Shown here: piece after piece, positions 6,620-25,345 of the stretch
Position numbering within the stretch: the first letter of the stretch is position 1
Layout: every line of letters begins with the position of its first letter
NCBI GenBank assembly: GCA_032119675.1
Contig: JAUMBN010000062.1
Coordinates: 1-35,907, forward strand
Direction: 5' to 3'
Origin: Solirubrobacteraceae bacterium
GTDB lineage: Bacteria; Actinomycetota; Thermoleophilia; Solirubrobacterales; Solirubrobacteraceae
Length of the DNA stretch: 35,907 bases
Notes under the pieces: generated by a model
What the model was told of the DNA's origin: nothing
Seen by the model: the letters and a program-made list of their open reading frames with translations, nothing else
The model's database searches: none
Translations under genes and position numbers: made by a program

Positions 6620-6713
6620 CGCGCCAATCTTCGCGCATCTGCGGGAAAGCCCGTAACTTTCGGGGTCTGAGCGTGTCTCTAATGGTGGCGGGCGCCGTTG
6701 CCCGCGACGCCCA

Positions 6714-8003
6714 ATGACCCTGATTTCGCCCAACACCATCAGACTCGTGACCGCCGCTGCGGCGGCCGTTGGCGTCCTCGCCCTCCCGGCCGCCGCTTCG
6801 GCGCTTGAGTACGTGCCCGGCGAGGTCGTCGTCAGCTACGAGCCCGGCCAGGCGCCGGCCGGCGTTGTGCCGGGCCAGCCCGTGGTCGTGCCGGTGGAGA
6901 ACGTCCGCGAGGCGGTCGCCGACCTCAAGGGCCAGCCCGGGATCGAGTACGCCGTTCCGAACGTGATCGCCCGTGCCGCCCGGGCGCGGTCGGCCCAGTT
7001 CCTGCCCAACGACCCGGAGATGAAGAGCCTGCAGTGGAACTTCCTCGGCCCCTACGGCGTGAGGGCGCCGGAGGCCTGGGCCAACGCGATCGCCGCCGGC
7101 CGCCCCGGGGGGAAGGGCGTCGTGATTGCCGTGCTGGACACCGGGGTGGCCTACTCCAACCGCACCCCCTTCAAGCGCTCCCCCGACTTCACTTCAGGGC
7201 AGTTCACCAAGGGCTATGACTACGTCGACCGGGACCGTTATCCCAGCGACGACAACGGCCACGGGACCCACGTCGCCGGGACGATCGCCGAGGCGACCAA
7301 CAACGGCATCGCCGTGGCCGGGCTGGCCTACGGGGCGAAGGTCATGCCGGTGCGCGTGCTCGACGCCAACGGCGAGGGCAACGCCAACGACATCGCGCGC
7401 GGCGTGCGCTTCGCCGTCAGGAACAGGGCCAAGCTGATCAACCTCAGCCTCGAGTTCGACTCCCGCGTGCGCGCCGACGACATCCCCCAGATCCTCGACG
7501 CCCTCGACTACGCGCGCAGCCGGGGCGTGCTGGTGGTTGGCGCCACCGGCAACGAGGGCGCCAACAGCGTCTCCTACCCGGCCCGCTCTTCGGCCGTGAT
7601 GGCCGTCGGTTCCACCACCGAGGACGGCTGCATATCCGAGTTCTCCAACGGCGGCTCCGGCATCGACATCGTCGCGCCCGGCGGCGGACTCGACGCCCGG
7701 GTTCCCGGCGACCCGCGCTGCCGCCAGAGCTTCAACGGCCGCGGCATCTACCAGGTGACCCTCCTGGGCAAGTCGCTCTCGCGCTTCGGCCTGCCCGGCA
7801 CCTACGAGGGAACCTCGATGGCTGCGCCCCACGTAACCGGCGCCGCCGCGCTGGTGATCGCCACCGGGGTCCTGGGCGAGAACCCGTCTCCGGCGACCCT
7901 CCAGAGGCACCTGCAGCGCACCGCCCGCGACTTCGGTCCCTCGGGCGCCGACAGCCTCTACGGCTGGGGGCTGCTCGACGCCGCCCAGGCCACGGCGAAG
8001 TAG
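6714..8003 (+). CDS. secreted S8 family (subtilisin-like) serine peptidase
   Basis: 429 aa. Signal peptide LVTAAAAAVGVLALPAAASA. Catalytic triad motifs are VIAVLDTGV (Asp), HGTHVAGTI (His) and GTSMAAPHVTGAAAL (Ser). Confidence 0.92.
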   Translation: MTLISPNTIRLVTAAAAAVGVLALPAAASALEYVPGEVVVSYEPGQAPAGVVPGQPVVVPVENVREAVADLKGQPGIEYAVPNVIARAARARSAQFLPNDPEMKSLQWNFLGPYGVRAPEAWANAIAAGRPGGKGVVIAVLDTGVAYSNRTPFKRSPDFTSGQFTKGYDYVDRDRYPSDDNGHGTHVAGTIAEATNNGIAVAGLAYGAKVMPVRVLDANGEGNANDIARGVRFAVRNRAKLINLSLEFDSRVRADDIPQILDALDYARSRGVLVVGATGNEGANSVSYPARSSAVMAVGSTTEDGCISEFSNGGSGIDIVAPGGGLDARVPGDPRCRQSFNGRGIYQVTLLGKSLSRFGLPGTYEGTSMAAPHVTGAAALVIATGVLGENPSPATLQRHLQRTARDFGPSGADSLYGWGLLDAAQATAK

Positions 8004-10911: not shown

Positions 10912-11685
10912 TCAGCCGCGCCGCGGGGGCAGCGGGAAGAAGCCGCTGGTACGGGCGACGTACTCGTCGTAGCCCTCGCGCTTCCTGCTCAGCGACTTCT
11001 CGAGCAGCCCCGCCCCGCTCACCTTGATCAGCAGCAGCGACATCACCAGCGGGCCGACGACGGTCCACCAGGCGCCGGCGGCCAGAGCCACCAGCCAGAT
11101 TCCCCACCAGACGCTGAAGTCGCCGAAGTAGTTCGGGTGGCGGGTGTAGCGCCACAGGCCCTGGTCCATCACCTTGCCGCGGTTTGCCGGGTCGGCGATG
11201 AAGCGGCTGAGCTGCAGGTCGCCGACCGTTTCGAAGAAGAGGCCGACCGCCCAGACGGCCACGCCGACCCACGCCAGCCAGCCGGGGGAACCCTCGCCGA
11301 GCTGGGCGCCTCCCTGGACAGGCAGCGAGACGACCCACATCAGTGCCCCCTGTACCCAAAAGACCGACCAGAGGCTCCGCAGCGGCCACCTGGAGCCGTG
11401 GCGCTCCCGCATCTTCGCGTAGCGGAAGTCCTCGCCGTGGCCGAGGTTGCGATTGGCCAGGTGGACGGTCAGGCGCAGGCCCCAGAGGGTCGTGAGGATG
11501 GCGAGCAGCAGCCGGTAGGAGCCCGAGCCGTCGGCCACCAGGAAGCTGACCCAGGCGACGACCACGAAGCCCGAGCCCCAGAAGATGTCGACTATCGAGG
11601 TGTCCTTCACCGCGACGCTGACCGCCCAGAGCGCGGTGACCATCACGAAGATCGCCGCTGCGTTTATCGCCAGGACGGTGGCCAT
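10912..11685 (-). CDS. DUF1295 / steroid 5-alpha-reductase-like membrane protein
   Basis: 257 aa. DIFWGSGFVVVAW...LWGLRLTVHL...EDFRY...GLWRYTRHPNYFGDFSVWWGIWL is the hallmark RHPNYFG block. Confidence 0.8.
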   Translation of the reverse strand: MATVLAINAAAIFVMVTALWAVSVAVKDTSIVDIFWGSGFVVVAWVSFLVADGSGSYRLLLAILTTLWGLRLTVHLANRNLGHGEDFRYAKMRERHGSRWPLRSLWSVFWVQGALMWVVSLPVQGGAQLGEGSPGWLAWVGVAVWAVGLFFETVGDLQLSRFIADPANRGKVMDQGLWRYTRHPNYFGDFSVWWGIWLVALAAGAWWTVVGPLVMSLLLIKVSGAGLLEKSLSRKREGYDEYVARTSGFFPLPPRRG

Positions 11686-11687
11686 GC

Positions 11688-12725
11688 TCAGGCGCTCGCC
11701 GCCTCGCCATCCATCTTCGATCCGATCCAGTCGTCCATATCGAGCCAGACGTTATCCAGCCACTCGACGCGCCCGTCGCGGCCGGCCGGGATCCCGGAAG
11801 CCGGGATTCGCGTGAACCTCACGCGAATCACCCGCCCGGCGAGCTCGCCGTCCCAGATGTCGGAGATGAGCCGCATCCCGTCGAAGCCCTGGTGGGCCAT
11901 CAGCACCACGTCGGTCTCAGGGGCCCCGTCGAGCACCGCGAGGACGCCGCCTGCCTTCGGCGGGAGCAGGTACTCGATCCCGGAGAGGCGCTGGGCCCGC
12001 GCGGGGTCGCGTTCGGCGATCTTCTCCAGTGCCCGGTCACGCCGCTCGGGCGTGAAGCGGGTCCCCTCCGGGTAGAGGAGGAAGCCGTCCTCGGGGCCCA
12101 TCCCTTCGGCGAGCGCCTGGACGCGCTCGCGCTCCACCTCCTCACCGGTATCGCGGCGAACAAAGTAGTTGGGGAGCCGCTGCCCAGCTATGTCCAGGCA
12201 CGGTTCGGAGAGCAGCTCGCGCTTGAGCACGTAACGCAGGTGAATCCGCTCCCGTGCCGCGATGAAGACTGAGGGGAGCAGGTTGTCGACGATCGAGGCG
12301 TGGCGGATGAAGACGATCACCGGCCCGGGCCGAAGGCACTCTTCGCCCTCGACCTCGACCTTCAGGCCGAGCAGGACGCGGACGACGTCGAAGAACCACC
12401 CGATCCACAGCTGCTGGAAGTGCCAGGTCAGCTCGACCATACGCTCCCTGCTGTGGCCGAAGCCGCAGGCCAGCCAGATCCCGAATAGGCCGAGGATCCC
12501 GGCGGTGTCGATAACGAGGTAGACCCACAGGAAGAGGACCAGCCGCATCGCCATCCACGTCTTGCGGTGGACCGCCCATCGGAAGAGGTCGACGAAGAAG
12601 CCCCCGACGAGCAGCACCGGCAGCAGTGCGGTCACGAGGACCAGCCCCACCAGGGCCAGCGGGACCGTCTTAAGTCGCCGCGCGACCTTCTGGCCGCGCG
12701 GCTCTCTCCAGACGGTCTCGCTCAT
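11688..12725 (-). CDS. lysophospholipid (1-acyl-glycerol-3-phosphate type) acyltransferase family membrane protein
   Basis: 345 aa with N-terminal TM helices. The HxxxxD box is IRHASIVDNL and the second box is LLYPEGTRF. The stop lies 2 nt before the DUF1295 ATG. Confidence 0.75.
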   Translation of the reverse strand: MSETVWREPRGQKVARRLKTVPLALVGLVLVTALLPVLLVGGFFVDLFRWAVHRKTWMAMRLVLFLWVYLVIDTAGILGLFGIWLACGFGHSRERMVELTWHFQQLWIGWFFDVVRVLLGLKVEVEGEECLRPGPVIVFIRHASIVDNLLPSVFIAARERIHLRYVLKRELLSEPCLDIAGQRLPNYFVRRDTGEEVERERVQALAEGMGPEDGFLLYPEGTRFTPERRDRALEKIAERDPARAQRLSGIEYLLPPKAGGVLAVLDGAPETDVVLMAHQGFDGMRLISDIWDGELAGRVIRVRFTRIPASGIPAGRDGRVEWLDNVWLDMDDWIGSKMDGEAASA

Positions 12726-15401: not shown

Positions 15402-16856
15402 GTGGCCAACCGCGTGCGCATTGCGATCGGCAGCGACCGGCGGGACCTCTTCCTGCTGGACGGCGTCACCGGAGGGTTTGCCGAGGCCCGCGGCCTTGAG
15501 GCCGGAGACCGCGAACGGCTGGTCGACGTGGTGCGGCGCATGGCCTCGTGGGTCAACGACAGCGCCTACCCGAACGACCAGACCGGCGAGATTGCCGTGC
15601 AGCTCGAGCTGGCCGAGGGGGCGGTGCGCGTGCTGGTCGAGGACTGGGGCGAGCCGCTTGCCGCCTTCGGCGGTGGCCTGGGTCCGGTGCCGGACGCCCT
15701 GGCGGAGGTCGACGCGCTGACCGGTGACCTGCGGCTGGTGAATCTCGGCCGCGACGGCAAGCGCCTGAGCGCCTCGGTCCCCGCCGAGGGCGTGGCACCG
15801 GAGGAGCTGGTGGCGCTGGCCGACTTTGCGCGTCAGGGGACCGAAGGCGAGGTGACCGCCGACCAGGTGGAGATCGCCGACGCCACGGCGCAGGACGCCG
15901 AGGCGATCTCGAAGCTTCTCTACGTCAATTACGGGCTCGGTTATGGCCACCCCGATTTTTACCGCCCGCTCTGGGTGGCCGACCAGATTGAGTCCGGCCG
16001 GGTCTTCTCGACGGTCGCCAGGCTCGGTGGCGAGGTGGTCGGCCATCATGCGATGCTCCGCGAGGAGGGGATCGAGGCGGGGGAGACCGGCGTGGCGGTG
16101 GTCCACCCCGCATACCGCGGCCTGGGGATCTTCGGCCGCCTCTTCTCCAGGACGGTCGAGCGGGCCCGCGACGCCGGGGTGCCGGCGATCTTCGGCCGCG
16201 CGGTCACCAGCCACCCTTACAGCCAGCGTGCCGAGCACGCGCGTGGCTACCGCGAGAGCGCCCTGATGCTCGGGTCGGTGCCTCCGGGCAAGCCCGACGG
16301 CGACGGCCTGGCACGCCGCGGGGCGTCGCTGCTCACCTACCTGCCGCTCGACATGGGCGAGCGGCCTGTGGCCTTCCCCGGGCGCTATCGGGAGCTGCTT
16401 GGCGCCGCCTACGCCAACCTCGAGCTCCCGGTCGGCAGCTCCGATTCGGTCGCCGCGCTAGCTGACCTCGGCGATGCTCCGGGGGTTGCCTTCGAGCGCG
16501 ACGAGCAGCGGGAGAGCGCGGTGATTACCGTCGGGCGCTGGGGCGAGGAGGCACGCGGGGGACTCCTCGACGGCCTGCGCGAGGCGGTCCGCCACCACGA
16601 TGACGTGGCCTACTGCGACGTCGACCTTGAAACCCTCACTACAGGGGAGCTGGACGAGGCTGTCGAGACGCTGCGCGGCTTCGACTTCTTCTACTCCGGG
16701 CTGGTGCTCGATGGGCGGGCCGGCCATGACCACCTGCGTATGCAGGCGATCCTCTCCGACAACGTCGAGCTCCAGAAGATCGTCCTCGACTCGGAATACG
16801 CCCAGGGGCTCAAGGAGGCGATCTTCGCCGACCGCGGCTGGCTGGCCGGCGCCTGA
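15402..16856 (+). CDS. RsbW-like HATPase (anti-sigma/Ser kinase-like) domain fused to a GNAT N-acetyltransferase domain
   Basis: 484 aa. The N-terminal ~140 aa (LVDVVRRMASWVNDSAYPNDQTGEIAVQLELAEGAVRVLVEDWGEP) resembles RsbW/SpoIIAB-type ATPase. The middle has the GNAT acetyl-CoA loop VVHPAYRGLGIFGRLF. The ~180-aa C-terminal region is unassigned. Confidence 0.7.
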   Translation: MANRVRIAIGSDRRDLFLLDGVTGGFAEARGLEAGDRERLVDVVRRMASWVNDSAYPNDQTGEIAVQLELAEGAVRVLVEDWGEPLAAFGGGLGPVPDALAEVDALTGDLRLVNLGRDGKRLSASVPAEGVAPEELVALADFARQGTEGEVTADQVEIADATAQDAEAISKLLYVNYGLGYGHPDFYRPLWVADQIESGRVFSTVARLGGEVVGHHAMLREEGIEAGETGVAVVHPAYRGLGIFGRLFSRTVERARDAGVPAIFGRAVTSHPYSQRAEHARGYRESALMLGSVPPGKPDGDGLARRGASLLTYLPLDMGERPVAFPGRYRELLGAAYANLELPVGSSDSVAALADLGDAPGVAFERDEQRESAVITVGRWGEEARGGLLDGLREAVRHHDDVAYCDVDLETLTTGELDEAVETLRGFDFFYSGLVLDGRAGHDHLRMQAILSDNVELQKIVLDSEYAQGLKEAIFADRGWLAGA

Positions 16857-17850: not shown

Positions 17851-18213
17851 TCAGGCCGCAGCGAGAGGGTGCAGCTCGGCGCGCTCCAGGGCTTCGGTTC
17901 GCAGGTGGGTGATCGCCTGGTAGCCCTCGCTCGTGACCATGTCGAGGAAGGCCTGGACGCTGGGGTAGCGAACGAGGAGCACGCTGTCCCAGTCGGAATC
18001 GTCTTCGCCGATCAGCGGTGAGGCGGCCTCGCCGGCAAAGACGATCTCGGCTCCGCTCTCCTGGAGGAAGGGGAAGGCCTTGGCGCCGTAGGCCTCGTAG
18101 CTCTCGCGGCCGCCGTCGGGCTTGAAGCGGAGCAGGTTGAGCATGACCACCGGCCCGCCGGTGTCTTCCTTTACAAGGCGCGAGACCTGCTCTGGAGTGG
18201 GATCGACCGGCAT
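17851..18213 (-). CDS. DUF1330 domain protein
   Basis: 120 aa. VVMLNLLRFK...YEAYGAKAFPFLQESGAEIVFAG...WDSVLLVRYPSVQAFLDMVTSEGYQ is typical DUF1330. SD-like AAAGGAAC lies 5 nt upstream. The gene starts 28 nt after the RDD gene stop. Confidence 0.85.
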   Translation of the reverse strand: MPVDPTPEQVSRLVKEDTGGPVVMLNLLRFKPDGGRESYEAYGAKAFPFLQESGAEIVFAGEAASPLIGEDDSDWDSVLLVRYPSVQAFLDMVTSEGYQAITHLRTEALERAELHPLAAA

Positions 18214-18241
18214 GGGGGTTCCTTTCGGGTTGGCCTGCTGC

Positions 18242-18925
18242 TCAGCGGGGCTTGCTCTTCGACGGGTCGAGGTGCTGCTCGGCCGAGCTGTAGCGGGGCT
18301 TGTACTTGTTGATGGCGGCGTCGCGGGCCAGGCGCCTGCGATCGGCGACAGTGTAAACGGGCGCGTCTATAACGACGCTGTCGCTGATGATGTCCAGGAA
18401 GCAGCGGCAGCGCTCGTTGAAGAGGCCGATGGCATAACCGGCACCGAACGGGATCGCCCCGAGCACCATGCCGACGAAGCGGAGCAGTGAGTGGCGGATG
18501 GTCAGCGGGCGCCCGTCGTCCTCGTCAACGACCCGGAACTCCAACGCCCGGGCGCCCGGGGTCTGGCCGGTGCTCGACCAGAACGAGACGAAGTAGGCGG
18601 TGGCCCAGATCAGGTAAACCACGCCGAGGATCGCGAGGATCACGGCTTCCGCGCTGTCGGGAACACCCAGGGTGTTCATGGTCAGGGCGGTGATCGCCCA
18701 GGTGATTGCCGCGACCAGGTTGACGATCGCCGCGTCGATGACGAATCCGAGCAGCCGGGAGACCAGGCCCACGTACCGCTGTGGTGCTCCCTTGACCGCC
18801 GACGACCCGCGCAGTCGCACCGCCGCGGCCACCTGCGCCCGGGCGATCGCCGACTCGGCCGGGCCGCTTGCCGACCAGTCGTCGGGCTGGGCAGGTGCAG
18901 CCTGTGATGCTCCCGTATCGGTCAC
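18242..18925 (-). CDS. RDD family membrane protein
   Basis: 227 aa. YVGLVSRLLGFVIDAAIVNLV...TPGARALEFRVVDEDDGRP...RFVGMVLGAIPFGAGY with 3 predicted TM segments. The GTG start overlaps the upstream TGA as GTGA (18922-18925). Confidence 0.85.
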   Translation of the reverse strand: MTDTGASQAAPAQPDDWSASGPAESAIARAQVAAAVRLRGSSAVKGAPQRYVGLVSRLLGFVIDAAIVNLVAAITWAITALTMNTLGVPDSAEAVILAILGVVYLIWATAYFVSFWSSTGQTPGARALEFRVVDEDDGRPLTIRHSLLRFVGMVLGAIPFGAGYAIGLFNERCRCFLDIISDSVVIDAPVYTVADRRRLARDAAINKYKPRYSSAEQHLDPSKSKPR

Positions 18926-19656
18926 GAGCCGGCTTCCTTGCCGCCGTGCTTCCCGCCGCCCCTGCTCCCGGCATCGTTCTCCTGGTCGGAGGGCAGCTGG
19001 GCGTCGAGCTTCTCGCTGCGGCCGATGAAGGTGCGTGCGGTGCGGGCGACCACCTGGTCGGCGGTGCGAGAGCGTCCGCGGACCTCGTCGCCGACCTGGT
19101 CGGCGAAGCCGAACCCCTGCTGGCGGACGGCGTCGATGACCGCGGGGCTCTCGGCGATCGTCTGCACGAGGATCCAGAGCTCCTCGCGCTCGAGGAATGC
19201 GTCGACGATCGGCGCCATCTCCCCGGCCTCCATCGCCGCGACGGTGATCTTCTGGACCATCTGGCTGCGGGCCACCTCGTCGGCGATCATGTCGATGGTC
19301 TCGGGGCTGAGGATGGTTCGCAGTGCGCTGGCGAAGGCCGGCCCGCTGACCACCCGCTCGAGCGTCTCCTGGACGGCCGGCGAGCCGACGACGGCGTCGA
19401 CCGCGCTGGTCATCGCCGGACTGGCCACCACCCGCTCGATCGAGTCCTGGACGGCCCTCGATGCCATCACCGTCTCCACGGCGCCCTCGGTGGCGCGAAT
19501 GGTCACCTCGGCCCCGGTACGGGCAGCGGCGCCGACGGCGCCGGCCACGGCACCGGTGATCGCACCGAAGAGGCCACCCGAGGGGCCGGCCGCTTCCGCC
19601 TCGATCACGATGATCTCTGCGCTTGCTTCCACGGGGCGGGAGGCTACCGCCCCCAT
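18922..19656 (-). CDS. hypothetical repeat protein (244 aa): Gly/Ala-rich N-segment, ~8-10 degenerate 13-aa helical repeats, charged C-tail
   Basis: This is the tail of track ORF 18922..20157; the upstream part overlaps the heliorhodopsin gene and is junk. From ATG 19656: MGAVASRPVEASAEIIVIEAEAAGPSGGLFGAITGAVAGAVGAAARTG... followed by AVQDSIERVVASP / AMTSAVDAVVGSP / AVQETLERVVSGP / AFASALRTILSP... An alternative CTG start at 19695 overlaps the heliorhodopsin stop (CTGA). Confidence 0.7.
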   Translation of the reverse strand: MGAVASRPVEASAEIIVIEAEAAGPSGGLFGAITGAVAGAVGAAARTGAEVTIRATEGAVETVMASRAVQDSIERVVASPAMTSAVDAVVGSPAVQETLERVVSGPAFASALRTILSPETIDMIADEVARSQMVQKITVAAMEAGEMAPIVDAFLEREELWILVQTIAESPAVIDAVRQQGFGFADQVGDEVRGRSRTADQVVARTARTFIGRSEKLDAQLPSDQENDAGSRGGGKHGGKEAGS

Positions 19657-19691
19657 TCGGCCGCCGCCGTCGAGCCCGGCGGTGCTCTCTC

Positions 19692-20495
19692 TCAGCCGCC
19701 GGCCAGGGCGCCGAAGTAGACCTGCCAGGCCAGGACGCTCTTGGCGATCAGGCTCAGCCAGAGGTAGGCCTTCTCGGCGAAGACCGGGTCGGCCCAGCGC
19801 CCGACGGCCTGGTACTGCAGCCACATGTTGAGGGCGAAGAGGTTGAAGAGGACGAAGAGCGTCCCGAAGATCACGTAGACGAAGACCGGCACTCCGTCTG
19901 AGTTGTCGGCCGCGGTCGAGGAGAGGATCAGCTGCAGCGCGATCGCGATCCAGGGCACAGCCCCGATCACGCACCCGTAGACGAACGGGCGCCACTGGAC
20001 CCTCGTCCGGTCGACGTTCGTGTACTCCATCACGAGGCCGAAGAGGATCATCGCGGCGTTGGCGCCGAAGATCGCCACCAGCGCGGTCAGCTCGCTGATG
20101 CCGGAGAGCATCGCGATCAGAACCACCATGATCGAGGCGCTGATCGAGTACTCCCACCAGCGCGCCGGGTTGATTCCGCGGCGCACGTTTCGCAGGTACC
20201 AGTCGCGCACCCCGGGGAGGGAGACCCCGAGGTGGTCGATCGCGGCCAGCAGCAGGAAGAGGCCGACCGCGAGGTCGATCCTCATCGTGAAGAGTTCGGT
20301 CATGCCGGGCGGCTCGGGACCCCCCGGCGGGCCGGTCATGTAGTTCAGGTTGACCGGCAGGCGCGCCGGGCCGGCGATCGCCACGATCACGATCGCCTGC
20401 GCGAGGTGGACGAGCCCGACGATTACGTTCAGGCGCAGCAGCGAGCGGTCTTCCCGGCGGACGCCCGATGGCGTGCCCTGAATCGCAGCTTCCAC
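19692..20495 (-). CDS. heliorhodopsin (retinal-binding 7TM photoreceptor, inverted topology family)
   Basis: 267 aa with 7 hydrophobic helices and a long TM1-TM2 loop (NLNYMTGPPGGPEPPGMTELFTM). It matches what I recall of prototype heliorhodopsin 48C12. TM3 RWWEYSISASIMVVLIAMLSG carries the Glu counterion. TM4 is ALVAIFGANAAMILFG. TM7 YLWLSLIAKSVLAWQVYFGAL carries the Schiff-base Lys, encoded at 19740-19742. Both conserved His positions (LVHLAQ and AIDHLG) are present. Confidence 0.85.
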   Translation of the reverse strand: MEAAIQGTPSGVRREDRSLLRLNVIVGLVHLAQAIVIVAIAGPARLPVNLNYMTGPPGGPEPPGMTELFTMRIDLAVGLFLLLAAIDHLGVSLPGVRDWYLRNVRRGINPARWWEYSISASIMVVLIAMLSGISELTALVAIFGANAAMILFGLVMEYTNVDRTRVQWRPFVYGCVIGAVPWIAIALQLILSSTAADNSDGVPVFVYVIFGTLFVLFNLFALNMWLQYQAVGRWADPVFAEKAYLWLSLIAKSVLAWQVYFGALAGG

Positions 20496-20502
20496 GCCCC
20501 CG

Positions 20503-20508
20503 ATGGTA
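20503..20508 (-). promoter_or_regulatory. candidate -10 hexamer TACCAT, 7 nt before the heliorhodopsin GTG 20495 (leaderless arrangement)
   Basis: The complement of atggta at 20503-20508. It lies in the 34-nt spacer between the tRNA-Ser 3' end and the GTG. Confidence 0.4.
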
Positions 20509-20529
20509 GGCGGAAGGGGGGACGCGGAG

Positions 20530-20618
20530 CGGAGAGGGCGGGATTCGAACCCGCGAACGAGGTTTCCCCCGTTACTCGCTTAGCAGGCGAGTGCCTTCAG
20601 CCGCTCGGCCACCTCTCC
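20530..20618 (-). tRNA. tRNA-Ser (anticodon GCT)
   Basis: The minus strand reads GGAGAGGTGGCCGAGCGGCTGAAGGCACTCGCCTGCTAAGCGAGTAACGGGGGAAACCTCGTTCGCGGGTTCGAATCCCGCCCTCTCCG. It has a 7-bp acceptor stem, anticodon loop CTGCTAA, a long variable arm and T-loop GGTTCGAATCC. No CCA is encoded. Confidence 0.93.
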
Positions 20619-20706: not shown

Positions 20707-22863
20707 ATGCTGACTACCTACGTGCATCCCGTGAAAGCCCGCAGACAGAGCCGTGTTTCCCGGCGCCTGATGGCGTATTTCGGCCTTTTCGCCGCGGCTG
20801 CGGGCGCGGCGCTGCTTGCCGCTCCGGCCTCGCAGGCCGCCGGTGAGCCCGACTACATCGTTCTTTACAAGCCCGGTACCAACGTCAGCGCCGAGGTACG
20901 CAGCGAGGAGAGGCGCGGCAACGAGGTGGAGGACGTCTTCCGCAGCGCCGTGAAGGGGATCGTCGCCCCGCTCGACAGATCCGACGTCGCCCGGCTGCGC
21001 CGCGACGCCGATGTGCTCCTGGTCGAGCGCGACGGCCCTGTCCGTGCCTTCGCCGCCGGTCCGCGCGACCAGAGCCCTGCCACCTGGGGCCTCGACCGGA
21101 TCGACCAGCGCGCCCTGCCGCTCAACAACCGGATCACCACCGACCAGAACGGTTTCGGCGTCAAGGCCTACATCATCGACACCGGCATCCGGGCCGACCA
21201 CTCCGAGTTCACCGGCCGCATGGTGTCGGGCTTCGACGCCATCGGTGACGGCCAGGGCACCAACGACTGCAACGGCCACGGGACCCACGTGGCCGGCACC
21301 GTCGGTGGCTCGACCTACGGCGTCGCCCCGCAGACGACCCTCGTCCCGGTGCGCGTCCTGAGCTGCTCGGGCTCGGGCAGCTTCTCGGGCGTCATCGCCG
21401 GCATCGACTGGGTCACCGCCAACCACTCGGCCGGCGAGCCGGCCGTGGCCAACATGAGCCTCGGTGGCGGCTACTCAGCCTCCATCAACACCGCGGTGGC
21501 CAACGCGAGCAACGACGGCGTAACGATGGTCGTCGCGGCCGGTAACTCGAACGCCGATGCCTGCAACTACTCGCCGGCCTCGGCTCCGAGCGCGATCACC
21601 GTCGGCTCGACCGTGTCCAACGACGGGCGCTCCTCCTTCTCCAACTACGGAACCTGCCTCGACATCTTCGCCCCGGGCTCGGGCATCACCTCGGCCTGGC
21701 ACACCTCGATTTCGGCGACCAACACGATCTCCGGTACCTCGATGGCGTCGCCGCACGTAGCCGGCGCTGCCGCGCTGGTGCTCTCCCGTGACGCGACGGC
21801 CAATCCCGGCCAGGTCACCGGAGCCCTCAACAACGCCGCGACCACCAATGTCGTGACCAGCCCCGGCACCGGCTCGCCCAACCGCCTCCTGTTCACCGGC
21901 GCGGCGACCATCCCGAACCCCAGCGACCCCGCGCCGACGCCCGATCCGACGCCGGCACCCCCACCCGCGCCGGCTCCGACCCCGCCGGCCAACGACAACT
22001 TCGCCTCGGCACCGACGCTCTCCTCGCTCTCGGCGGTCACGGGCTCAACCATCAACGCCACCCGCGAGGCCGGAGAGCCGGCGCACGTGGGCGCGGCGTA
22101 CGGCAGCTCGAAGTCGATCTGGTACCGCTGGACCGCGGCCGAGTCGGGGACCGTCACCCTCTCGACCCAGGGCAGCGCCTACGACACGCTTCTCGCCGTC
22201 TACGTCGGTGACACCATCTCCGGGCTCTCCGCGAAGGCCGCAAACGACGATTCGGGCGGAGGTCTCTGGAGCCAGGTGAGCTTCCAGGCTTCGGCCGGCA
22301 CCACCTACCGGATCGCCGTCGACGGCTGGAACGGAGCCTCGGGCAGCACGAACCTCTCGGGCGCGTTCGTCGCCGACCCGCCGCCGGCCCCGGCGCCCGA
22401 CCCGACCCCCACGCCGGACCCGACCCCGACCCCGACACCGACGCCGGACCCGACCCCGACGCCGGACCCGACCCCCACGCCTGAGCCCGACCCGACTCCC
22501 GAGCCCGTCCCGCAGCCGGTACCCGGGATCGTCGCACCCACCAGCTCGACGGTGAACGTCTCCCGCCGCACGGCCACCACCACGGTTACCTGCCAGCCGG
22601 TGACCGACGACGGCAACGACGCGCCGTGCGCCGCCTTCCTGCGCCTCGACACCACCCTGGGCGACTCGGTTCGCGGCATCCGTCTGGAAGTGGACGAGAG
22701 CGGGCAGGTCAGCTTCCGCCTCAGCTCGGCGATGGCCCGGCGGGTCAACCTGCGCGGCAGCGTTGCGGCCCGGATCGTCGTCTCCCAGGCGGCCGGCCGC
22801 GCGGTCTACCGCGTGAACCTCGTCAAGGCCTCCTCGGCTTCGCGCAGAGCCGCCCGCCGCTGA
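20707..22863 (+). CDS. secreted multidomain S8 (proteinase K-like) serine peptidase: I9-like propeptide, catalytic domain, PT linker, beta-sandwich domain, PT linker, unknown C-terminal domain
   Basis: 718 aa. Signal peptide [26 protein letters not shown]. Propeptide YIVLYKPG...VLLVERD. Triad motifs are [26 protein letters not shown] and [15 protein letters not shown]. The middle domain reads NDNFASAP...REAGEPAH...IWYRWTA...[11 protein letters not shown]...ANDDS...TYRIAVDG. The start may instead be ATG 20770. Confidence 0.9.
22375..22524 (+). repeat. Pro/Thr/Asp-rich low-complexity coding repeat (linker) within the S8 gene
   Basis: The DNA is made of ccgac/cccgac-type iterations encoding [51 protein letters not shown] shorter PT linker lies at about 21913-21990. 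Confidence 0.8.
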
Positions 22864-22890: not shown

Positions 22891-22964
<74 letters not shown>

Positions 22965-23041
22965 CTGCACCGGGTTTTCCGGGCGGCGGCGCAGCCGGCC
23001 AGGAGCTGTCTTGGACCTGCGCTTGCGCCGATGTTGTGTTG

Positions 23042-23047
23042 TAGCTT
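23042..23047 (+). promoter_or_regulatory. candidate -10 hexamer TAGCTT, 6 nt before ATG 23054 (leaderless arrangement)
   Basis: TANNNT-N6-start read directly from the sequence. Confidence 0.4.
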
Positions 23048-23053
23048 CGGGCG

Positions 23054-25249
23054 ATGAGGCTTGTGAGGGTGTTTGTGTTGTCGCTCATGTCGACCGCTCT
23101 GGTTGCCGGTTCGGGTGGTTCTGCGCTGGCGTCGATCGGCTCGGCCTCCTCCGCCGGGCCGGTCCGGGTCGAGGTCGATACACCGACCCCGCAGGCGGTT
23201 GAAGCCCTGGTGGAGGCCGGGCTCGACGTAGCCGCAGGCGACGTGCCCAAATCCGACGTGATCCTCTGGTCGAGGGAGGATCGGCTCACCCTGAGGAAGG
23301 CCGGCGCCCGGTGGCGGCCCCTCCCGGACCCGAGGCCCGTGGCCGGTGCCCAGGTCTCGACGCTCCCTTCAGGCAGGACGACATACCGGGTCTGGGAGGA
23401 CTACGAGACCGAGATGCGGATGCTCGCCAGGCGCTACCCGTCCCTGGTCCGGCTCCGCTCGATGGGCGAGACACTCCTCGGCCAGCCGATGCTCGGCCTG
23501 GAGATCGCAAGAAACGTCTGGGCGAGCGACGGCAGGCCGGCCTTCGTCCAGTACGGGCTCCATCACGCCCGGGAGTGGCCTTCGGGCGAGTGGGGCATCG
23601 AGTACGCGATCGAGATGCTCAAGAAGCAGGGCCAATCCCGTTACGCCAGCCTGCTGCGAAATACCCGCCAGTTCATCTTCCCCGTGATCAACGTCGACGG
23701 CTTCCAGGCATCGCGGGGCGCCGGCCCCAGTCCGATCGGGGCGCCGGACTCGGCCAGCTCGCTGCTCGGGCCGGGGAGTAACGAGTACCGCCGGAAGAAC
23801 TGCCGTCCGTTCCCCGGCGAGGCTCAACGACCCTGCAGTGAGCTCAATACGGAGGCCGGGGTCGACCTGAACCGCAACTACGGCTACTTCTTCGGCGCCA
23901 CCGGAACCGAAGCGATCGCCTCGAGCGAGATCTACCGCGGGCCGGCCGGGTTCTCCGAGCCGGAGAGCGAGAACGTCCGCCTGTTCACCAGGCGGCTCCA
24001 GCCGACCGTCGTCCTCAGCCACCACACCTACTCGGAAGAGGGGCAATGGCTGCGACAGCCCTCCCTGGACCCGGCGATACCCCCCGGCGACATAACGCCC
24101 GACGAGGCCGAGTTCACGGCCCTCGGGGACTCGATGGCGACAGCCACCGGATGGGCCTCGCTGCCTGCCTTCCAGCTCTACCCCACAGCCGGTGCGACCG
24201 ATGACTGGAACTACCACGCCCAGGGAGCTCTCGCCTTCACCAGCGAGGGCCGCGGACCCGACTTCCACTCCTTCTTCGACCAGGTGGTCCGGAACGAGTG
24301 GCCGGGCATGAAGGAGGCGATCCTCCGCGCGGCCGAGGCGTCGGTCCGGGAGGGCTCACGGATAAGGGGCGAGGCTCCGCCTGGCTCGAAGCTGCGGATC
24401 GAAAAGAGGTTCTCGATCCCCGTCTGTCAGGGGTTCACCGAGACAGACCAGTGCATCTCCCCCACACCGACGATCCCCGAACGCCTCTCGAGCGAGATGG
24501 CCGTGCCGGCCTCGGGCGAGTTCTCATGGCGGGTCAACCCGTCCTCGCGGCCGCTGGCCCCCGGGGAGACCTGGCGTCTTACCTGCAAGGCTCCGGGCGG
24601 AGATCCGGTGAGCCGCGAAGTCGCCGTCGGGAGGGGTCGATCGGTGGCCGTGGGACTCGCCAACTGCCGCCCCGGACCGGCCGGGCGACCGGTGGCCAGG
24701 TTTCGTCTGATCGAGCGGGCCATCGCGGGCCGGAGGGCCGTCCTGGTCTCCCGGAGCACCGACCCCGACACCCTCATCGTCTCGAACCGGTGGGACCTCG
24801 ACGGGGATGGCGCATTTGACGACGCCTACGGTCGGGTGGCCGCGCCTACCTGGCGGCGCCCGGGGCTCAGGACCGTGGGCCTGAGGTCGGTCGACCTGAA
24901 CGGCAGGGTCGCGGTGACCCGCCGGCAGGTCCGGGTGGCGCCAAGGCCCTCCGGCCGGCCGTCACTTTCCCTTCGAATCAGCTCTTCGATGGGCGGCACG
25001 AACGTCGTCTTCCGCGCCGCCGGGCCGCTCGGCACCTACAGCTGGGACCTTGACGGCGACGGCGCCTTCGACGACGGACGCGGCAGCGAAATATCCCGCT
25101 CGTATCGCTTCGCAGGCACCTACCGGATCCAGGTCCGGCTGAGAGATCCCTTTGGCCGGATCGCTACCCGTCGGTCCTCGCTGACGATCGCTCAACTGTC
25201 CGATCCCGGGGCCGGGACAACCACGCCCCCGGCAGGCTCCGGCCGGTGA
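23054..25249 (+). CDS. secreted M14 family zinc carboxypeptidase with two C-terminal PKD-like repeats
   Basis: 731 aa. Signal peptide VFVLSLMSTALVAGSGGSALA. Zinc motif GLHHAREWPSGEW (HxxE), then FPVINVDG, DLNRNY and the second zinc His in LSHHTYSE. Two WDLDGDGAFDD motifs are encoded at 24791-24823 and 25043-25075, 252 nt (84 aa) apart. Confidence 0.88.
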   Translation: MRLVRVFVLSLMSTALVAGSGGSALASIGSASSAGPVRVEVDTPTPQAVEALVEAGLDVAAGDVPKSDVILWSREDRLTLRKAGARWRPLPDPRPVAGAQVSTLPSGRTTYRVWEDYETEMRMLARRYPSLVRLRSMGETLLGQPMLGLEIARNVWASDGRPAFVQYGLHHAREWPSGEWGIEYAIEMLKKQGQSRYASLLRNTRQFIFPVINVDGFQASRGAGPSPIGAPDSASSLLGPGSNEYRRKNCRPFPGEAQRPCSELNTEAGVDLNRNYGYFFGATGTEAIASSEIYRGPAGFSEPESENVRLFTRRLQPTVVLSHHTYSEEGQWLRQPSLDPAIPPGDITPDEAEFTALGDSMATATGWASLPAFQLYPTAGATDDWNYHAQGALAFTSEGRGPDFHSFFDQVVRNEWPGMKEAILRAAEASVREGSRIRGEAPPGSKLRIEKRFSIPVCQGFTETDQCISPTPTIPERLSSEMAVPASGEFSWRVNPSSRPLAPGETWRLTCKAPGGDPVSREVAVGRGRSVAVGLANCRPGPAGRPVARFRLIERAIAGRRAVLVSRSTDPDTLIVSNRWDLDGDGAFDDAYGRVAAPTWRRPGLRTVGLRSVDLNGRVAVTRRQVRVAPRPSGRPSLSLRISSSMGGTNVVFRAAGPLGTYSWDLDGDGAFDDGRGSEISRSYRFAGTYRIQVRLRDPFGRIATRRSSLTIAQLSDPGAGTTTPPAGSGR

Positions 25250-25271: not shown

Positions 25272-25345
<74 letters not shown>

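Follow-up and report, generated by a model that had tools for sequence, protein, structure and literature searches.

The heliorhodopsin (HeR) gene of a Solirubrobacteraceae bacterium was found to head a run of four consecutive minus-strand open reading frames (ORFs), in which it is followed by genes for a helical-repeat protein of an uncurated family (REP), a membrane protein of the RDD family (RDD) and a DUF1330 protein. The DNA analysed (assembly GCA_032119675.1, contig JAUMBN010000062.1, window 1-35,907; "the window" denotes this whole stretch of 35,907 nucleotides) has a G+C content of ~70%. The block was found again in Solirubrobacterales genomes and metagenomes, at ~20 non-identical loci, and the arrangement HeR-REP-RDD-DUF1330 is far beyond chance. 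The explanation favoured here, with a probability of about 45%, is that HeR modulates a REP-RDD complex in response to light.

An earlier note on this DNA had listed the four ORFs, all on the minus strand, and each was found as placed (Table 1). The junctions it described are present as well: a 35-nt gap between HeR and REP, a GTGA overlap of REP and RDD, and a 28-nt gap before DUF1330. The same holds for the two boundaries, a tRNA-Ser(GCT) gene 33 nt upstream of HeR on the same strand and a convergent gene whose 3' end lies 8 nt past DUF1330, and for a TACCAT hexamer (20508-20503) 7 nt before the GTG of HeR. The proposal of a self-contained four-gene unit was borne out in relatives, where the genes are conserved as a block with HeR at the head, preceded by its own -10 element.

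Conservation was examined in two surveys. For the first, an HeR alignment was scanned against one genome per species (GTDB) and the best 80 of 283 HeR relatives were kept; nearly all of these loci are from Solirubrobacterales metagenome-assembled genomes. For the second, a REP alignment was scanned against metagenome contigs, which yielded 80 loci, 11 in the clade of HeR-linked sequences (the linked clade) and 69 outside it. Profile searches identified HeR-REP-RDD(-DUF1330) in 11 of the 80 HeR loci, and a twelfth contig ends right after HeR. The linked HeRs were placed in one clade with two subclades by neighbour-joining, with the block present in all 11 testable members; among all families in the 80 HeR loci, only REP is fixed at position +1 on the same strand as HeR. 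The linked REP clade comprises 25 of 97 REP sequences, and HeR lies upstream of REP in nine of the nine testable metagenome loci. Co-occurrence of the neighbourhood in related genomes, which the earlier note had put forward as a check, was thus found in every testable member of the clade (11/11 and 9/9), but in one clade of single origin. The linked clade belongs to the Solirubrobacterales, and its sample names are suggestive of lakes and reservoirs.

The four-gene order is constant within the linked clade apart from one lineage with an HeR deletion (see below), down to identities of ~65% for HeR, ~41-50% for REP and ~60% for RDD and DUF1330. The flanks vary around the intact block, with at least four upstream contexts (tRNA-Ser with a divergent S8 peptidase gene, an M23 peptidase gene and two other divergent genes) and at least three downstream contexts (the convergent glycosyltransferase gene, same-strand DegT/epimerase genes, and another family followed by a GNAT gene). 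In L012-L015 and L001, too, HeR is preceded by the tRNA-Ser gene, the place of which is taken by a divergent gene in the other subclade. The placement of the convergent glycosyltransferase-like gene relative to the unit differs among loci.

A TANNNT hexamer precedes the HeR start codon, the position of which is kept in relatives, by exactly 7 nt in 13 of 13 loci compared (variants TACCAT, TAACAT, TAGGAT, TAGTTT, TACCGT, TAGCGT and TAGCTT). Across the order, such a hexamer occurs 6-8 nt before the start in 40 of 67 HeR genes, compared with 0.7% of all ATG/GTG triplets. A -10 element at such spacing from the start codon is the geometry of a leaderless transcript in actinobacterial promoters, and the pattern suggests that HeR is generally leaderless in Solirubrobacterales. 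Downstream of this element, no terminator-like sites were detected on the minus strand within the unit by a simple scan; actinobacterial terminators often have no T-tracts, and such a scan could miss them. The predicted fold of the HeR-REP spacer is no more stable than those of shuffled sequences (z=-0.5), and neither a terminator nor a structured RNA was found between HeR and REP. The genes share one strand, their junctions are short or overlapping, and their order is kept in diverged relatives with changing flanks; by these features the unit is probably co-transcribed from the HeR promoter.

Two natural variants of the block bear on this promoter and on the order of the genes. The related genomes L003 and L004, which differ at 6 of 1,700 positions, carry a 33-codon ORF between an upstream hydrolase gene and REP (L003 5907-6005; L004 likewise). 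This ORF consists of the first ~10 and the last ~15 codons of HeR (…AK…LAQQVYFGA) joined in frame, with the HeR promoter region kept and the stop codon overlapping the ATG of REP. When the remnant was aligned with the ends of the L005 HeR gene, DNA alignment scores of 35 and 21 were obtained (shuffles ~9±1.4). REP and RDD are kept in L003/L004, and DUF1330 and the glycosyltransferase gene are gone; a sister contig (L092) still has DUF1330. Since the L003/L004 lineage is nested within the linked clade in the REP tree, HeR was lost secondarily, by in-frame internal deletion. That the promoter outlived the gene suggests that it drives REP-RDD. In the second variant (L005/L097), HeR is 79-81% identical to the window-type HeR, and REP, RDD and DUF1330 are 80-89% identical to those of the other subclade (L052/L079). 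This disagreement between the HeR tree and the relationships of the other three genes implies recombination within the block, by which the HeR allele was swapped and the arrangement preserved.

REP and RDD belong together. The start of RDD overlaps the stop of REP by 4 nt (GTGA) in the window, and a 4-nt overlap was also found in L001, L003, L005, L008 and L009. REP(N)-RDD(C) fusion proteins were identified as the four longest REP matches tested (P0178, P0186, P0183 and P0241) and in three further metagenome loci (L120, L121 and L156). The pairing of the two genes in the earlier note is upheld by this overlap and by the fusions in some relatives. Such a pair, a REP homologue directly followed by RDD, usually with a 4-nt overlap or fusion, defines what we call the REP-RDD module, and the window contains one. 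Judged from these arrangements, REP and RDD act as one translationally coupled unit.

The module also occurs outside the block. In the 69 HeR-less metagenome loci, the sample identifiers of which are soil-like, REP is usually directly followed by RDD; when L008-L011 are added, RDD is the +1 gene in 46 of 73 HeR-less REP loci. The third gene is variable in these contexts of distant homologues (a response regulator or DUF1269). On its distribution, the REP-RDD module is older, widespread and autonomous, and functions without HeR; HeR and DUF1330 are read as add-ons that were gained once, because the 69 REP loci outside the linked clade carry neither. Among the HeR-less loci (L103-L171, L008-L010), a divergent upstream gene for a multi-helix protein of ~470-560 aa ending in SHOCT was seen in ~30 loci. 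DUF1269 follows RDD in 16 HeR-less loci, and MalT/LuxR-type and response regulators occur in some. A window ORF for a protein of 484 aa (15402-16856, plus strand), in which a histidine-kinase-like ATPase domain (weak HATPase_c_2 match) is combined with a GNAT acetyltransferase, has counterparts that lie near the module in most related loci, the HeR-less L003 among them.

The HeR protein itself is an ordinary member of its family. It matches PF18761 over profile positions 2-242 of 242 (E=7.7e-88, 294 bits, cut-off 26.7) and the NCBIfam HeR equivalog NF038020 with 280 bits (cut-off 100). Alignment with 48C12 HeR (6su3/9ljj) showed that the Schiff-base lysine (K252, within LSLIAKSVLAWQ), the counter-ion glutamate (E115, within RWWEYSISAS) and both histidines (H30 and H88) are kept; HeR should therefore be photochemically competent and a working photoreceptor. 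HeRs as a family bind retinal, have a slow photocycle and show an inverted membrane topology with the N-terminus inside. Among the unlinked HeR loci of Solirubrobacterales (L017-L090), B12-binding MerR/CarH-like regulators were seen near nine and photolyase-related proteins near seven, at scattered positions; these photolyase-related and MerR-type neighbours resemble published HeR neighbour groups.

The REP protein of the window gave no Pfam or NCBIfam family match, and when 19 members of the REP family were compared with Pfam at E<=1, scattered noise was the only result. Its relatives number 1,098 representative sequences (591 at E<=1e-10) in a hidden Markov model search of 1.8 billion representative proteins. 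A tandem repeat of 26 aa was identified (residues 60-85 and 86-111; score 69, shuffles 37±6), and a conserved C-terminal motif reads SPAV..A..QQGFGFADQVGDEVR.RSRTAD. Weak profile matches to GerD, a helical spore protein (PDB 4o8w, E=0.005; NCBIfam, 0.026), were judged to reflect resemblance among repeat helices, and homology to GerD was rejected. REP has no signal peptide, and its hydrophobicity is below that needed for a transmembrane helix; it is probably a soluble, cytoplasmic helical-repeat protein. Given the missing signal peptide and the N-terminal position of REP in the fusions, REP and the N-terminus of RDD are probably cytoplasmic, and this is probably the side of the HeR N-terminus and of its partner-binding loops.

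The start codon of REP was reassigned. The relatives start at the codon matching GTG 19632 of the window (MEASAEIIVIE, 236 aa), eight codons past ATG 19656, and L013 has no equivalent of that ATG. Both facts make ATG 19656 an unlikely start; GTG 19632 is more likely, which gives a protein of 236 aa and a spacer to HeR of 59 nt. The 244-aa protein of the earlier note is thus borne out as an ORF and in its repeat nature, with a start that more likely lies downstream. The alternative CTG start that it had pointed out, overlapping the HeR stop, is in frame and was discarded as unconserved, because HeR ends with TAG or TAA in the relatives.

The RDD protein matches PF06271 (E=5.3e-21, 75.8 bits, cut-off 24.1) and has three hydrophobic segments. 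R57, D64, D178 and the motif TGQTPGxR are invariant among 76 REP-linked RDDs.

The DUF1330 protein matches PF07045 (E=8.2e-10, 39.4 bits, cut-off 23) and is homologous to RPA0582 (PDB 3dca, E=2.7e-17), an uncharacterised structural-genomics entry. Wherever a linked locus extends far enough downstream, its gene follows RDD. DUF1330 might itself be the HeR-specific partner: the two genes would have arrived together, bracketing the REP-RDD landing site, and HeR would modulate, or be served by, a small dimeric alpha/beta-barrel protein. DUF1330 does share the distribution of HeR, being present in the linked clade, absent from all 69 REP loci outside it and missing in L003/L004, and the third gene is the variable one in HeR-less relatives. 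This pattern amounts to one gain and one joint loss, however, and has no statistical weight; the adjacent glycosyltransferase gene is also missing from L003, so that DUF1330 may have been lost separately, in a larger deletion. No DUF1330 gene was found within 8 kb of the 68 unlinked HeRs, and no activity is known for DUF1330. A partnership of HeR with DUF1330 in place of REP-RDD is accordingly judged improbable.

The mechanism preferred for the block takes the REP-RDD module as the older part. HeR was placed once directly upstream of it, with DUF1330 added downstream. A leaderless mRNA would most likely start at the HeR start codon from the TANNNT -10 element and read through REP, RDD and DUF1330. 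HeR would then serve as a light sensor that contacts REP-RDD within the membrane or at its cytoplasmic face, and a pre-existing membrane module would thereby come under light control, as has been published for glutamine synthetase, photolyase and an ABC transporter, which other HeRs regulate in a light-dependent way. REP-RDD is a plausible transducer of the HeR signal. A more specific version, in which a membrane complex dedicated to light sensing is built from HeR, RDD and REP, light-induced changes in HeR are passed to an intramembrane site of RDD and to REP as a cytoplasmic scaffold, and DUF1330 is the output or a cofactor, is regarded as doubtful.

Several findings weigh against light control of REP-RDD by HeR. 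The first group concerns transcription. TAGCCT lies 8 nt before GTG 19632 and is conserved at N7-8 in the window subclade, AAGTAT or AAAGAT stands at N6-7 before REP in the other subclade, and no clear ribosome-binding site was found before REP; a related motif, AAGATTG, precedes REP in HeR-less loci. An internal promoter before REP, with nested transcripts instead of a single one, is therefore possible. Taken further, the four genes might be independent, tightly packed transcription units that form no operon and share no function; such packing is common in compact genomes. The HeR-REP spacer of 36-59 nt, with a -10-like hexamer and no ribosome-binding site, would suit independent units, and terminators without T-tracts could have escaped the simple scan. 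Against them stand the conservation of order and strand in ~20 non-identical loci, the 4-nt overlap of REP and RDD, the spacer free of stable structure and the remnant ORF of L003, which is translationally coupled to REP. Independent units are considered very improbable.

The second group of adverse findings concerns distribution. REP, RDD and DUF1330 were absent within 8 kb of HeR in the other 68 of 80 loci, so that ~85% of the sampled Solirubrobacterales HeRs are without the link; HeR was beside REP in none of the 69 metagenome loci outside the linked clade; and REP-RDD persists after the HeR deletion in L003 and is thus independent of HeR. The single origin of the link means that its conservation could partly reflect inheritance, not selection. 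A reading of REP and RDD as a dedicated transducer family of HeR was abandoned in view of the 69 HeR-free loci and the HeR deletion.

The third group concerns the proteins. An AlphaFold2 model of REP, built from a 19-sequence alignment, is all-helical and of low confidence (pLDDT 61, pTM 0.25), and a Foldseek search of the PDB with it gave no match. Only four residues are specific to the linked HeR clade (N49, E67, I142 and Y158), and they form no distinct cytoplasmic patch or cluster; as an interaction patch they were dropped as uninformative.

Alternatively, the genes would be co-located without direct coupling, HeR having landed once by REP-RDD and persisting there by inheritance or by the convenience of a shared promoter. 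HeR would then act elsewhere or generically, and REP-RDD would be independent of light. Besides the single origin, the autonomy of REP-RDD (69/69 loci and after HeR deletion) and the possible internal promoter, this reading can draw on the undistinctive linked HeRs and on the leaderless geometry shared by 60% of Solirubrobacterales HeRs, whatever their neighbours. It accounts less well for a block that is present in every testable clade member despite at least three to four flank rearrangements and wide protein divergence, for an HeR allele replacement that kept the exact position, and for an in-frame HeR excision that kept promoter and start, as expected if downstream expression needs that promoter. 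Co-location without coupling is a possible explanation, though on the unlikely side. Modulation of REP-RDD by HeR is retained as the preferred reading.

Table 1. Positions of the four genes, their signals and their boundaries in the window.
Feature	Position	Strand	Remarks
tRNA-Ser(GCT)	20529-20618	-	ARAGORN; bounds the unit upstream (window subclade)
TACCAT -10-like hexamer	20503-20508	-	candidate leaderless promoter of HeR
Heliorhodopsin, 267 aa	19692-20495	-	GTG start; PF18761, NCBIfam
HeR-REP spacer	19633-19691	-	holds TAGCCT (19646-19641), possible internal -10 element
REP helical-repeat protein, 244 aa ORF	18922-19656	-	uncurated family
RDD-family membrane protein, 227 aa	18242-18925	-	PF06271
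DUF1330 protein, 120 aa	17851-18213	-	PF07045; last gene of the unit
Convergent gene, 319 aa	16883-17842	+	weak glycosyltransferase/MGDG-synthase-like match; downstream boundary

The remainder of the window consists of ordinary chromosomal housekeeping genes. A genomic island at tRNA-Ser was considered and rejected: the composition is like that of the surroundings, the other subclade has no upstream tRNA, and the absence of any integrase Pfam match among the 27 window ORFs scanned counts against it. Two secreted S8 subtilases are encoded in the window (20707-22863 and 6657-8003, both on the plus strand). The former, with long Pro/Thr-rich PTPDPTP linkers, is divergent, lies just past tRNA-Ser and is kept there in the window subclade only. 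A DUF1295 membrane protein (10912-11751, minus strand) is encoded 6 kb from the unit. tRNA-Arg(ACG) was called twice (22891-22965 and 25272-25345). The second copy has its 3' ~55 nt in common with the first, is diverged in its 5' part and D-arm, and overlaps the start of an acyl-CoA dehydrogenase ORF. The pair, which flanks one M14 carboxypeptidase-PKD gene (23045-25249; no integrase seen), looks like the tRNA 3'-end duplication left by an insertion.

Sensory rhodopsin II and HtrII are encoded by a photoreceptor gene beside a membrane-partner gene, and their products are thought to touch within the bilayer. The block shares this logic, a photoreceptor gene beside a membrane-partner gene, without being a member of that system: unlike HtrII, REP, RDD and DUF1330 have no HAMP or MCPsignal/methyl-accepting domains (Pfam), and the topology of HeR is inverted.

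Parallels are also found among HeRs. In three operons, the product of the neighbouring gene is regulated by HeR, namely glutamine synthetase (GS), photolyase and OmrDE, an ABC transporter (Cho et al. 2024, PMC11109279, its refs 12, 13). Like the operons of these three, the block combines a canonical HeR with a lineage-specific neighbour on the same strand at short spacing, and light modulation by protein contact is proposed for it. Ten HeR neighbour groups have been published (GS, NAD+ synthetase, photolyase, MerR, TerC, ABC transporter, SDR, alpha/beta hydrolase, DUF2177 and DUF2238; PMC11109279); REP, RDD and DUF1330 lie outside these. Neighbourhood conservation, the type of evidence used here, was also that of the surveys of Bulzu et al. 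and Chazan et al. In the former, fewer than 10 bp were required between genes (Bulzu et al. 2021, PMC8612252), so that the HeR-REP spacer of 36-59 nt would be excluded; in the latter, the families DegV, DUF2177 and DUF1295 were reported to be typical of genomes that carry HeR (Chazan et al., bioRxiv 10.1101/2021.02.16.431466). Neither RDD nor DUF1330 is mentioned in the text of Bulzu et al. (supplementary tables outside the scope) or in the texts and supplements of Chazan et al. and Cho et al. The pairing had been called uncharacterised, in agreement with this: in the papers searched, no text that links heliorhodopsin with RDD or DUF1330 was found, nor did the supplements of two surveys do so. 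HeR partners differ among lineages, which has been termed "photosensory promiscuity" (Bulzu et al. 2021, PMC8612252; PMC11109279). The block is thus a conserved HeR unit with a new partner set, within the already established concept of lineage-specific HeR partners.

Complex formation with neighbouring membrane proteins has been reported for RDD proteins, as in the SppI-SppA pair of B. subtilis, in which the RDD protein SppI (YteJ) is an inhibitor of SppA, a membrane protease (PMC7568657). An RDD protein of Halobacillus was reported as an Na+(Li+,K+)/H+ antiporter (PMC5996927), and RDD domains occur fused to VanZ or histidine kinase domains, with a suggested intramembrane binding site that faces the cytoplasm (PMC12419801). 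The RDD described here shares this Pfam domain and its invariant R, D and D, and would likewise be embedded in the membrane and partner or regulate the product of a neighbouring gene. Unlike the described examples, it is accompanied in the unit by no sppA, VanZ or kinase gene, and its partner is the uncurated REP family.

HeRs are widespread, and up to now every link of an HeR to a function has come from an adjacent gene. The locus described here adds a partner set that is absent from the neighbour classifications examined, and REP, RDD and DUF1330 are, on the conservation of the block, credible candidates for what HeR controls, within the limits of a link that arose once, in uncultured organisms. 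The natural variants (the HeR-less module, the in-frame HeR deletion and the swapped HeR allele) provide concrete constructs for testing the control of a membrane partner by HeR. REP is defined as an uncurated family with ~1,100 representatives and as the constant, sometimes fused, partner of one RDD subfamily, and this partnership is a first clue from gene context to the function of the large RDD domain family. If HeR, RDD and REP do form a dedicated complex, a heliorhodopsin would for the first time be assigned a membrane-embedded transducer, and two groups of proteins, the large, uncharacterised RDD family and the uncurated REP family, would gain a first physiological handle.

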